Below, in pieces: positions 1,422-28,255 of a stretch of 64,000 bases of DNA. Numbering within the stretch: position 1 is the first letter of the stretch; the number at the start of each line of letters is the position of its first letter. The notes beneath the pieces were generated by a model. That model searched no databases. It saw only the letters and a list, made by a program, of their open reading frames with translations, and had not been told where the DNA came from. The stretch is taken from assembly GCA_902615435.1 (NCBI GenBank), contig CACMOZ010000002.1, positions 44,192-108,191 on the forward strand, given 5' to 3'. Both the position numbers and the translations under genes were made by a program. Source of the stretch: an uncultured Pelagibacteraceae bacterium (GTDB taxonomy: Bacteria > Pseudomonadota > Alphaproteobacteria > Pelagibacterales > Pelagibacteraceae).

Positions 1422-1468
1422 TTTATAATGTCATTAAAAAAACAACCTTCATATTTAATTTTTATCTG

Positions 1469-2227
1469 ATGATAGAAATTCTGATTCTTTCATTCGTACA
1501 AGGTATCACAGAGTTCTTACCAATTAGCTCTTCGTCACATTTAATCTTAACAAATGAGTTTTTAAACTTTAAACACTCGAATTTAGCTATTGATGTAAGC
1601 ATGCACATTGGATCATTTTTTGCGGTTATAACTTATTTTTACAAAGACATATTTAATTTTATTAAAAATAAAGAGCTTTTTTTAAAAGTTTTTATTGCAT
1701 CAGTACCAGTTATGATTATTGGTTTTTTTTTAGCTGAAACTAAATTAATTGAGTCGTTAAGAAGCATGAAAGTTATTGGGTGGACGACTTTAATATTTGG
1801 AATTTTACTTTTTTTAAGTGATAATTTTAAATTAGATAAAAAGATTGACACAGATTTTAGTTATAAATCTGCAGTAATAATTGGAATTTATCAAATTTTT
1901 TCTTTAATACCAGGTGTAAGTAGATCTGGAATAGCTATTACTGCAGCAAGATTTTTAAGTTTTGATAGATTTGACTCCGCAAAAATAGCATTTTTACTGT
2001 CAATACCTACATTGGGAGCAGTTTCAATTTATGGTATAAAAAATTTAGCTATTTCTGAAGATTTTAATTTTTCTATTTTAAATATAATTTGTATATTGTT
2101 ATCTTTTTTATTTTCTTTAATTACTATAAAATTTTTTCTCAAATATATAAAGAGATTTAGTCTGAAAATTTTTGTTATCTATAGAATAATCTTAGGAGTC
2201 ATAGTTCTTTTTTTTGCTTACTTATAA
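1469..2227 (+). CDS. uppP: Undecaprenyl-diphosphate phosphatase
   Basis: QGITEFLPISSSSH and PGVSRSG BacA/UppP motifs; polytopic membrane protein. Confidence 0.95.
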   Translation: MIEILILSFVQGITEFLPISSSSHLILTNEFLNFKHSNLAIDVSMHIGSFFAVITYFYKDIFNFIKNKELFLKVFIASVPVMIIGFFLAETKLIESLRSMKVIGWTTLIFGILLFLSDNFKLDKKIDTDFSYKSAVIIGIYQIFSLIPGVSRSGIAITAARFLSFDRFDSAKIAFLLSIPTLGAVSIYGIKNLAISEDFNFSILNIICILLSFLFSLITIKFFLKYIKRFSLKIFVIYRIILGVIVLFFAYL

Positions 2228-25579: not shown

Positions 25580-26245
25580 ATGCCAAAAAAGAAAAAAGCA
25601 AAAAAAGCAAAAAAGATAAAAAAAGCAAAAAAATCAATCAAGCCTAAAACGTCCATTAAAACGTTAGATAAAAAAAGTAATATTGCTGGTCCAGACGATA
25701 AACCAGAAATTAAAAAAATTAAAAAACAACCTACTGAAAAACGTAATTATAACTTAAAGGATTTTGTTGTTTATCCTAAGCATGGGGTTGGAAAAATAAC
25801 TGCAATTGAAAAGGCAAAGATTGGTGAAATAGATATTCAATTTTATAAAATATTAGTTGAAAAGGAAAAATTGACATTAACGGTTCCTATAAACCAACAA
25901 TCAAAACTAAGACCTATATCTTCTATAAATCAAATAAATAAATGTATATCAATTTTGAAAACAAAGCCTAAAATAAAAAGAACAATGTGGAGTAGAAGGG
26001 CACAAGAATATGATCAAAAGATTAATTCTGGTAAAATTTATGAATTGGCCGAAGTAGTTAAAGACCTTAATAAAAATACTGATATTATCGCAGATCAATC
26101 ATACTCTGAGAGACAATTATTTGAAAAAGCCTACGAAAGATTGAAATCTGAATTCGAGGCAGTATTAAAAATAAACCCTGAAGATGTTCAAAAAAAAATG
26201 GATAAAGCTTTAGGTAGAACAAATATTTCTGAGAGTACGGAATAA
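25580..26245 (+). CDS. carD: CarD family transcriptional regulator with Lys-rich N-terminal extension
   Basis: VVYPKHGVG, MWSRRAQEY and SYSERQLFE motifs; follows fdxA as in other alphaproteobacteria. Confidence 0.93.
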   Translation: MPKKKKAKKAKKIKKAKKSIKPKTSIKTLDKKSNIAGPDDKPEIKKIKKQPTEKRNYNLKDFVVYPKHGVGKITAIEKAKIGEIDIQFYKILVEKEKLTLTVPINQQSKLRPISSINQINKCISILKTKPKIKRTMWSRRAQEYDQKINSGKIYELAEVVKDLNKNTDIIADQSYSERQLFEKAYERLKSEFEAVLKINPEDVQKKMDKALGRTNISESTE

Positions 26246-26281
26246 AAAAACGCCCTTCTTAAAAAATTAAAAAGGGCGTTT
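26244..26281 (-). terminator. Intrinsic terminator between carD and the basic-peptide gene
   Basis: AAACGCCCTT(26248-57)/AAGGGCGTTT(26272-81) stem; the A7 run at 26244-50 gives a U-tract on the minus strand. Confidence 0.8.
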
Positions 26282-26295
26282 AGTTAAAGAGAAAA

Positions 26296-26370
26296 CTATC
26301 TTCTTTTTCTTCTTCTTTTTTTAGCTTTCTTTTTAGTTTTCTTTTTAGCTTTTTTTCTTCTTTTAGCCAT
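26296..26370 (-). CDS. 24-aa extremely basic peptide (MAKRRKKAKKKTKKKAKKRRRKRR)
   Basis: Manual translation; SD AAGGGAG 5 nt before ATG; terminator just downstream; promoter-like motif upstream. Confidence 0.75.
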   Translation of the reverse strand: MAKRRKKAKKKTKKKAKKRRRKRR

Positions 26371-26420
26371 CTTTTCTCCCTTGTTAATAAACAAATCTTA
26401 ATGATTCGTTTGTTAATTAA

Positions 26421-26448
26421 ACATTAATTATTAAAAGATTCATGTCAA
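26421..26448 (-). promoter_or_regulatory. Putative sigma70 promoter of the basic-peptide gene
   Basis: Minus strand TTGACA-N16-TAATGT; GATTC (GANTC) sites at 26403, 26437 and 26471. Confidence 0.5.
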
Positions 26449-26578
26449 ACATAAATTATTTTGTAAAATTGATTCAAAATTAAAATTTTTAATTATTTAT
26501 TTTATTTTTAGTAAATTTTTAAAAAAGTTAGCAATATCAATGTTTTTTTAAGCAAATTTATAAACTTTTTTTATAAAA

Positions 26579-28255
26579 TTAATAAAGATTTTCTAGTTGT
26601 TGTTTATAATTTTTAATAATTTCTTTTCTTTTTAACTTTAAAGTTGGTGTTAACATTCCGTTTTCAATTGTAAATTCTTGATGAATTAAAACAAATTTTT
26701 TAATTTTTTCTATTAAAGTTAAACTTTTATTTATATTTTCAATTATAAGTTTAATTTTTTCCTCTTTTATTTCTTTTTCTGTAACTAATATTGCAACTAA
26801 ATAATTTTTTTTATCACCGTAGACAAAGGATTGTTTAATAAATTCATTTAAACATAGAATATTTTCAATTTTACTTGGAGAAATGTTGTCTCCACCTAAA
26901 TTAACTATGATATCTTTTTTTCTATCAGTTATTTTTAAATAATTGTTTTGATCTAGCTCACCAATATCCCCAGTATGTAACCAACCATCTTTGATTATAT
27001 TTTTTGTCTCATCCTCAAGATTCCAATAACCTAACATTACGTTTTCACCCTTTATCAAGATTTCACCATCCTTTGCTATCTTTACTTTATTAGTTCTAAA
27101 CGGGGGACCAACTGATTCGACCTTTACCAAATTTGGTAGATTGCAGCTAACCACAGGAGATGCCTCCGTTAGCCCATAACCCTGCAAGGTAGGCAGTCCT
27201 ACGGCATTTAAAAATTCACCGATATTTTGATCTAAAGCTCCACCTCCAGAAACAAAGGCTTGAAGGTTTCCTCCAAATTGACCTCTAATTTTTTTTCTTA
27301 CTAATTTTTCACATATAAAATTTAAGATTTTTTCACTAAAACTTAATTGCTCTTTTTTAAGTATTTTTTTTCCTAATTCTAAAGTTTGGTTAATTAATTT
27401 TCTTTTAAGTCCTTTTTGTTTTTCAAAATTCATACTTATTTTGGTAAAAAGATTTTGATAAAACCTTGGAACAGCTGTCATAATAGTTGGCTTAGCAACA
27501 ATCATATTTGAAATTAATTTTTCAAGACTCTCTGCATAAAAAACTTTTGCTCCAACTATAATTTGTATAAATTGGACAGTATGCTCATAGGAATGTGATA
27601 ATGGTAACCAAGTTAAAAATGTAGGATCTTTTTTTTTAGTCAAAGTTTCTAGTAACTCAACTGCTCCTTCGCAGTTCGATAAAATACCACCATGACTTAA
27701 AATAACACCTTTAGGATTTCCTGATGTTCCCGATGTATAAATAATACAAGCAGGCATATTTCTTTTTAACTTGTTGTTAATCTCTTTTTTAAAATTATCT
27801 TCATCTAGGATATTTTGAATTAATAAACTGTCAGTGTCTATCTCTTCAAAAGATATTATTTTTTGCTCGTTTATATTTATATGATTTTTAATCTTTTTAA
27901 ATTGACCATTATTTGAAACTATAATTAAAGATGGCTTACAATCATTTAAAATATATTTATAATCATTTGAAGAATATGTTGTAAAAATTGGAACTGATAC
28001 TCCTCCTGAATTCATCACAGCAAGATCTGCCATTAACCAATACGGTCTATTTTCAGATAATATTAAACAACGATCACCTTCTTGAATTAATGATTTTATC
28101 TTTGATGATAATTTCAATACTCTCTCTTTGATATCACCCCAGCTATAAGTTGGTTTTCCTGGTTTTAACCATTTTAAAAAAGGTTTGTCGGGATCAACCT
28201 CTTCGCACTTTTTAAAGTATAATTCTACAAGACTATTAAGTTTATCTATTTTCAT
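26579..28255 (-). CDS. fadD: Long-chain fatty acid--CoA ligase
   Basis: IIYTSGTSGNPKGV, QGYGLTE, GWLHTGDIG and TPTLKLKR motifs. Confidence 0.9.
   Translation of the reverse strand: MKIDKLNSLVELYFKKCEEVDPDKPFLKWLKPGKPTYSWGDIKERVLKLSSKIKSLIQEGDRCLILSENRPYWLMADLAVMNSGGVSVPIFTTYSSNDYKYILNDCKPSLIIVSNNGQFKKIKNHININEQKIISFEEIDTDSLLIQNILDEDNFKKEINNKLKRNMPACIIYTSGTSGNPKGVILSHGGILSNCEGAVELLETLTKKKDPTFLTWLPLSHSYEHTVQFIQIIVGAKVFYAESLEKLISNMIVAKPTIMTAVPRFYQNLFTKISMNFEKQKGLKRKLINQTLELGKKILKKEQLSFSEKILNFICEKLVRKKIRGQFGGNLQAFVSGGGALDQNIGEFLNAVGLPTLQGYGLTEASPVVSCNLPNLVKVESVGPPFRTNKVKIAKDGEILIKGENVMLGYWNLEDETKNIIKDGWLHTGDIGELDQNNYLKITDRKKDIIVNLGGDNISPSKIENILCLNEFIKQSFVYGDKKNYLVAILVTEKEIKEEKIKLIIENINKSLTLIEKIKKFVLIHQEFTIENGMLTPTLKLKRKEIIKNYKQQLENLY

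Follow-up and report, generated by a model that had tools for sequence, protein, structure and literature searches.

In protamines, half or more of the residues are arginine. The histone-H1-like proteins Hc2 of chlamydiae and BpH1 of Bordetella vary in length through lysine-rich units (PMC2848022), and another H1-like protein, chlamydial HctA, is lethal in E. coli unless the RNA IhtA is present (PMC4355289). Among small ribosomal proteins, eL41 is 24 amino acids long, and bS22 of Borrelia, 61% of whose residues are lysine or arginine, is unannotated, abundant and nearly invariant across Borrelia (PMC10618245). Stav et al. (2019; PMC6429828) described sORF-3, found only in SAR11 and represented by 398 examples, to which the accessible part of that paper assigns no function. 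The conserved bulged hairpin rhtB was described by Meyer et al. (2009; PMC2704228) without an assigned role, and the accessible part of their paper names no target. Beyond Stav et al. (2019), the literature that could be reached gave no function for the sORF-3 peptide and no link to GcrA or rhtB.

An sORF-3 gene is present in the window (the whole stretch of 64,000 nucleotides that was analysed, from an uncultured Pelagibacteraceae bacterium); its features and neighbours are collected in Table 1. The ORF itself is thus already published, and what we propose for the function of its product is read from sequence. Translation of the minus-strand ORF from 26370 to 26296 gives MAKRRKKAKKKTKKKAKKRRRKRR, a peptide of 3.1 kDa with 12 lysines, 7 arginines, no aspartate or glutamate and a net charge of +19.

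Table 1. Coordinates of the peptide gene, its signals and its neighbours in the window
Feature	Position	Strand	Remarks
24-codon ORF, Lys/Arg/Ala peptide	26296..26370	-	sORF-3 locus of Stav et al. 2019
-35 element TTGACA, predicted sigma-70 promoter	26443..26448	-	TTGAC in 67/67 orthologous genes
Predicted -10 element TAATGT	26421..26426	-	weak, 3/6 consensus match; 16-nt spacer; variable in relatives
CGAATCA box (other strand TGATTCG)	26402..26408	-	GcrA consensus YGAKTCG and GAWTC methylation site; about +5 to +11
5' leader hairpin enclosing the box	26389..26411	-	z = -3.4; equalled in 1/200 shuffles
Shine-Dalgarno sequence AAGGGAG	26376..26382	-	5 nt ahead of ATG
Intrinsic terminator	26242..26281	-	U tract on peptide strand; overlaps stop codon of convergent carD
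carD/cdnL	25580..26245	+	convergent neighbour, synteny anchor; Lys-rich N-terminal tail
Long-chain acyl-CoA synthetase (fadD-like)	26579..28255	-	upstream neighbour; other genes instead in second family and at locus L036

The initial annotation had described this lysine- and arginine-rich ORF as a stand-alone cassette for a basic peptide. The ORF with its 12 K, 7 R and no acidic residue, the AAGGGAG sequence (26382 to 26376) at 5-nt spacing and a terminator (26281 to 26248) with its U tract on the peptide strand were all found as described. Three lines of evidence, conservation, composition and the previous publication of the ORF, back the reading as a cassette for a putative nucleic-acid-binding peptide. 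The terminator fold had a z-score of -7.1, equalled by none of 200 shuffles; its U tract lies on the peptide strand in 62 of 63 parsed loci and on the carD strand in 19 of the 63. The proposed TTGACA-N16-TAATGT promoter stood in part: both sites are in place and TTGAC is conserved throughout, but TAATGT matches only half of the consensus, and a consensus scan, which listed 5 promoter-like sites in total, fewer than the 10 found in shuffles, did not list it. Because the -10 element is poor and the scan was silent, the promoter call rests on conservation.

Among the 10,157 ATG-initiated ORFs of 12-70 aa in the 1.04-Mb assembly, the 24-mer has the highest share of lysine plus arginine (0.79; the next has 0.62). 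When the bases of the ORF body were shuffled, an open frame with at least 19 K/R was obtained in 5 of 100,000 cases. A 19-aa basic "peptide" that also came up in the small-ORF ranking was discarded as the C-terminus of a UvrB-like ORF. An Rfam scan of the peptide locus gave no match at the gathering score, just terminator-like chance matches. Contigs from four of four marine RNA runs span the leader and the gene's 5' half; one of them is identical and another differs by a single letter. These contigs do not reveal strand, level or start, and such libraries can contain DNA. Depth figures from the runs were left unused (all holders had a small word share, and contigs only were available).

The locus was followed by way of its neighbour carD, which was located in 122 of 151 genomes of the family; in the second family of the order, 34 of 40 genomes had it. 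Flanks were read at 70 first-family loci, this genome included, and at 20 second-family loci. The synteny with carD and the reading frame, for which the initial annotation had suggested a check across Pelagibacterales, were conserved: the ORF was intact, and always faced carD, at 87 of the 90 loci, two of the others being at contig ends and one (L035) frameshifted by one extra A within an A run. Since three further genomes of the same genus are intact, this frameshift is probably an assembly error. The orientation toward carD is invariant; the upstream neighbour is changeable. Where named records have this peptide or a near-identical one next to carD, their label is Pelagibacteraceae or SAR11. 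In other Alphaproteobacteria, no such ORF lay within 1.5 kb of carD at the 28 loci read, out of 108 matches beyond the order. Genomes flagged as unpublished contribute solely to counts (G068 to that of carD, G630 to that of the 27-aa peptide described below) and to one of these 28 loci (G236), and none of the conclusions hinges on them. The CarD N-terminal Lys/Ala-rich tail (window 25580-25730, plus strand) resembles the peptide encoded on the facing strand and is longer in other genera.

The length of the peptide differs between groups. This genus and its neighbours have 20-24 aa, genus g8 has 25-35 aa, the three genera g10, g12 and g14 have 31-38 aa, and g17 has 50-58 aa. The forms of the second family, at 40-91 aa, begin with a short head of the MEELK type, after which come AAPKK and PAKK repeats. 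The range from 20 to 91 aa arises through gain or loss of AKK/AAPKK units, which in the 24-mer are cut down to two or three AKK/TKK units. All forms were regarded as one gene because the same -35 element, leader box and terminator type are found throughout. In 67 genes K, A, R and P together make up 91% of the residues. The 67 loci encode 50 different peptides, and among 35 short forms only M1 and K3 are invariant. Both ends are constrained: the peptide starts with M-A/P-K and ends with RRR, KRR, KKR or RKR in all 67. Arginine codons 4-5 alternate between AGA and CGT, and length changes by whole codons in all but one locus. The AGA/CGT exchange, the kept frame and the codon-wise expansion to 91 aa indicate selection on the protein. 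At the level of sequence, the comparisons establish that the ORF is under selection, has signals of its own and encodes a polycation whose length is free to vary.

The initial annotation also held that gene callers would miss the ORF. The HIMB5 locus was indeed found as an intergenic region, but protein look-ups were uninformative in this respect. None of 20 family sequences was present by exact look-up among 15 billion proteins, which is not proof of gene-caller misses because the ESM Atlas contains two of the 20 letter for letter; the collection of 15 billion probably drops low-complexity proteins. Searches for homologues with the 58- and 85-aa forms returned nothing or a few unnamed fragments.

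The most conspicuous element of the leader is the CGAATCA box, found in 86 of 87 genes (66 of 67, and 20 of 20 new loci), 38-42 nt after TTGAC and 37-63 nt from the ATG. In this genome 111 TTGAC sites are intergenic, and the one ahead of the peptide gene is alone in being followed by such a box. GcrA recognizes the motif TGATTCG/YGAKTCG, and positions +5 to +30 are a known GcrA zone (PMC9976885, PMC7987155); the position of the box given in Table 1 was counted from the predicted transcription start. Both gcrA and a ccrM-like gene were found in this genome and in five of five others. GAWTC is depleted about twofold in this genome (observed/expected 0.46-0.50), and such depletion has been reported for methylating SAR11 (PMC8919816). 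These observations are consistent with GcrA/CcrM control of the peptide gene, which we predict for the whole order. In one genome (G015) gcrA and ccrM are present and the box is absent, and according to the accessible parts of the sources on the motif (PMC9976885, PMC7987155) its extended form was not recovered in Brevundimonas and is not general in Caulobacterales.

The box doubles as the 5' arm of an RNA hairpin, which is predicted in all 61 distinct leaders and whose 3' arm retains a G-U pair in 28 of 66 genes. In 9 of the 61 leaders the first bases of the box are mostly predicted to be unpaired, and the box is without change there. A distant look-alike gene described below (G584) has a similar hairpin in the same place without a GANTC site. 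The box likely serves both a DNA role and an RNA role.

Some further sites were noted. In the assembled orientation of the contigs, all nine CGAATCA sites of this genome fall on the minus strand, perhaps by chance. The region upstream of ccrM (G000:C1:4695-4771) has three GAWTC sites. GcrA-like boxes also occur in gaps by ftsK-, recA- and clpX-like genes (C8:10989, C9:6924 and C3:6022; gene names assigned by eye from N-termini) and at about 22297 in the window, beside the helicase (also named by eye) that heads the carD cluster. The leaders of the second family (L081-L099) are longer, with a conserved CCTCT predicted to pair with GGAGG inside codons 1-3 and a second small hairpin beside this pairing; the predicted pairing is a possible translational control.

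A second putative control was found in relatives. In four of four g8 genomes the only exact copies of a 16-nt site were at the start of the peptide gene and in an sRNA, the latter being an intergenic hairpin with a U tract (L394 and L396-L398, about 1464-1547, minus strand). This hairpin is the rhtB element of Rfam (RF01814), with scores of 74-84 bits against a cut-off of 55. In all 20 genomes having both partners (pair loci in g8 and g16 genomes, including L420-L453) the rhtB loop is exactly complementary to 14-19 nt over the Shine-Dalgarno sequence, the spacer and the AUG, making this region the predicted target of rhtB in genera g8 and g16. In 8 of 11 g8 genomes the next-best match of the Rfam model is the peptide gene's own start, and the spacer between the Shine-Dalgarno sequence and AUG is fixed in rhtB-holding genomes and variable elsewhere. 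In 14 of the 20 pairs the mRNA reads AUG-CCU where the sRNA would match AUG-GCU, one mismatch past the AUG, hence mRNA and rhtB do not co-vary.

Of 101 family genomes, 13 have rhtB above the Rfam cut-off, all of them in g8, g16 or g19 (3 of 19 genera); the stem pattern occurs in 21 of 151 genomes. In the genome studied here the rhtB slot is a 25-bp gap between its two usual neighbours. Duplex scans of this genome and of 170 intergenic regions gave no outstanding antisense partner, the best matches being the opposite strands of other gene starts. Control of the peptide gene by rhtB is predicted for g8, g16 and g19, and not for this genome. At two g2 loci (L455 and L457, about 1500-1590) weak rhtB-like matches were seen in which the stem is kept and the loop is non-complementary to the peptide leader; they are possibly a decaying copy.

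For the product of the gene we lean, with some reserve, towards the following explanation: a real, conserved 24-residue polycation, the shortest form of an H1-tail-like SAR11 family, would bind the chromosome electrostatically and help to compact the nucleoid. The conserved signals predict a transcript of this gene only, begun at a dedicated promoter and ended at a dedicated terminator. Probably without a fixed fold, the peptide would cancel phosphate charge and link DNA duplexes whatever their sequence, which would leave the number of repeat units free to drift. Dose control is proposed because excess polycation shuts down transcription. GcrA would read the methylation state of the box and so tie synthesis to replication, and in g8, g16 and g19 rhtB would in addition block the ribosome-binding site. 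RNA, ribosomes and polyphosphate attract a polycation no less than DNA does, and the sequence gives no ranking among these targets; in addition, two genes of the HU/IHF family are already present in this genome. By arithmetic, some 126,000 copies would be needed to neutralise about 1.2 Mb completely, and they would contain 0.8 times the nitrogen of the DNA itself. As this would be costly for an oligotroph, only a partial or timed coating is plausible.

The initial annotation left two options, a protamine- or histone-tail-like nucleoid peptide and a ribosomal protein of the eL41/bS22 type. The first gained from the AAPKK-repeat orthologues of 40-91 aa, and the second lost because length and sequence are free. 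The term "protamine-like" was overstated, arginine accounting for 7 of 24 residues here and for 17%, beside 50% lysine, over the 67 genes.

A small ribosome-bound protein resembling bS22 or eL41, or else a binding or storage factor for ribosomes or RNA, is in our estimate unlikely, and it has several points to its credit. Size and basicity fit bS22 and eL41 (PMC10618245), both ends of the peptide are constrained, with the C-terminal basic triplet present in every one of the 67 loci, and an S30AE gene follows the CPR look-alike in 2 of 32 loci. However, bS22 is nearly invariant, which is at odds with 50 peptides of 20-91 aa in 67 loci, and no ribosomal-protein genes are near the peptide gene. 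The SAR11 peptide matched neither PF08213 nor solved ribosomal chains, an insensitive comparison since the candidate described next was also without a match. The constancy expected of a pocket-filling ribosomal protein is instead displayed by a separate basic peptide, encoded at G000:C4:118392-118475 (L101:2393-2476, plus strand) behind a strong Shine-Dalgarno sequence and divergently from metC in this genome. It has 59% K/R, is 27 aa long in all 30 loci read (the best 30 of 60 matches) and has 19 invariant positions. It was present in 59 of 60 family genomes and, with the same query, in 0 of 60 genomes of the second family; family models and the PDB gave no match to it. Probably it is the uORF-5 of Stav et al. 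(2019), read as an attenuator in the accessible part of that paper. Because its length and sequence are constant, it is the better candidate for a bS22-type ribosomal protein. For the 24-mer, a surface-bound, non-stoichiometric ribosome role may still apply.

Quite unlikely, in our view, is a general polyanion buffer, a gene-encoded polyamine stand-in that coats RNA, polyphosphate and DNA with no special role in the nucleoid. It would agree with the lack of sequence-specific residues and the free interchange of K and R, and with similar stand-alone ORFs in unrelated lineages. The long forms argue the other way, their AAPKK repeats being typical of DNA-compacting proteins, and a conserved GcrA-type box together with a dedicated antisense RNA suggests timing rather than steady buffering.

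A toxic polycation acting in growth arrest or against phage, restrained by an antisense RNA as in type I toxin-antitoxin systems and released by stress, is very improbable. It would explain why a small ORF has a trans-encoded RNA matching its start in all 20 genomes with both, and it recalls the lethality of HctA without IhtA in E. coli (PMC4355289), but the gene is core and at one locus order-wide, the RNA occurs in 3 of 19 genera and is missing here, and the peptide is without a hydrophobic helix. Hardly credible, too, is the view that the RNA or the act of translation is what matters (as an sRNA, or by insulating the carD terminator), with the peptide as a side product: nucleotide conservation does extend to the leader hairpin, the box and the terminator, and the terminator overlaps the carD stop codon, but this leaves the AGA/CGT exchange, the kept frame and the codon-wise repeat expansion without explanation, and in the accessible part of their paper Stav et al. 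also considered cis-regulation unlikely (PMC6429828).

Resembling ORFs were found beyond SAR11. A degenerate pattern search returned 120 loci from 12 of 64 parts of GTDB. Among the SAR11 matches, 42 of 44 were ORFs no longer than 45 aa in which K/R reached 55% or more; the corresponding figures were 18 of 21 for CPR-labelled matches, 3 of 6 for archaea and 12 of 49 for the others, groups being assigned from record titles; as the pattern was built from the SAR11 peptide, these shares are not lineage frequencies. In most of the short K/R-rich look-alikes a hairpin lies behind the ORF. Of 32 non-SAR11 loci, 10 adjoin secA, and 2, in CPR, have the gene of the S30AE hibernation factor downstream. 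Rfam gave no match in 20 non-SAR11 loci. The look-alikes outside SAR11 are taken as resemblances in sequence, without a claim of common descent.

Leaders of a CPR type (L120, L152, L164, L169, L172, L188, L203, L210 and L219) share a -10-like hexamer, a hairpin beginning with AAACG and then GGTCGA; Rfam gave no match to them in the loci scanned. An alphaproteobacterium from outside the order with a small AT-rich genome (G584) has a stand-alone gene for a 116-aa protein of AAKKKAAPKK repeats (L248:1220-1570, minus strand), with a TTGAC promoter, a leader hairpin and a strong Shine-Dalgarno sequence, at a locus different from that of the SAR11 gene.

Among matches in viral contigs, 40 of 109 were short K/R-rich ORFs, many of them redundant and some probably tails of longer frames; a narrow pattern matched no viral contig, and 50,697 phage records gave no match. 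Two phage look-alikes with a strong Shine-Dalgarno sequence lie beside portal or head-scaffold genes (L278 and L306), and most others adjoin an exonuclease gene (40 neighbour proteins from 11 loci); the former speak for the nucleoid reading and the latter against it. One phage group (L257, L263, L268, L284 and L320) has a 21-24-aa poly-Lys ORF with a strong Shine-Dalgarno sequence near an exonuclease (phrog_298); four of these five loci are also near phrog_25889.

A wider proposal can be offered tentatively, as a possibility that we ourselves regard as doubtful. The SAR11 chromosome would be packed by a protamine-sized polycation made in a GcrA/CcrM cell-cycle pulse and gated by rhtB in Pelagibacter proper. 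It would belong to an overlooked class of 14-30-aa MAK...RR peptides that serve as minimal chromatin in bacteria of very small size (SAR11 and CPR), in certain archaea and in phages; among prokaryotes this class would parallel the protamines, and it would escape both annotation and tryptic proteomics.

SAR11 bacteria are among the most abundant cell types in the ocean. If the nucleoid reading is true, a chromatin component would be named for them, one invisible to standard methods because trypsin would shred the peptide and gene callers skip its ORF. It would also supply a concrete GcrA target in SAR11 and a target for rhtB, which has been without one since 2009. Across the forms of 91 down to 20 residues that share one locus, the streamlining of a single protein is visible, with a charge per residue of 0.58 against 0.79.

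Compared with sORF-3 as described (PMC6429828), the locus has the same arrangement, a Lys-rich short ORF and a terminator between a long-chain acyl-CoA synthetase gene on the same strand and a convergent cdnL gene; carD appears under the name CdnL in Table S1 of that paper. In its accessible part the terminator is the only notable structure, and the box, the leader hairpin, the long forms, rhtB and the look-alikes do not appear. With bS22, eL41 and mS38 the 24-mer has in common small size, basicity (79% K/R, where at least 60% is typical of that group) and having been missed by annotation, but those proteins, whose place is the 16S h2/h27/h44/h45 pocket, are fixed in length and sequence, in contrast to the 20-91 aa and the 50 peptides in 67 loci found here.

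The closest parallel in regulation is chlamydial HctA (Hc1): in the mRNA of this basic, H1-like protein the start codon lies under the loop of IhtA, a hairpin RNA encoded in trans (PMC4355289). IhtA pairs over about 7 nt and spares the Shine-Dalgarno sequence, whereas the rhtB loop covers 14-19 nt including it. HctA and the SAR11 peptide do not match in sequence, the rhtB layout belongs to relatives and is missing from the genome of the window, and repression by rhtB is predicted.

As for the protein itself, no PF07382 or other H1-like Pfam score was obtained for 12 forms (the SAR11 family and a look-alike) or genome-wide, and NCBIfam gave no match for 8 forms; HMMER performs poorly on low-complexity sequence such as this family. 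Among the ESM Atlas clusters closest to the 58-aa and 85-aa forms, HC2 is the only named family, and it accounts for 23% of a 52-member cluster with scores of 0.90-0.91, which is a lead only. At best, the SAR11 family would work like Hc2 and BpH1, membership in their family being unsupported by the PF07382 and NCBIfam scores. Hc2 and BpH1 are longer, 149-237 aa as against 20-91 aa in the SAR11 family, which has an end with an arginine cluster. The likeness to Hc2 (HctB, PF07382) and BpH1 lies in Lys/Ala/Pro-rich repeats whose number varies between close relatives, and here it is clear in the orthologues of 40-91 aa.
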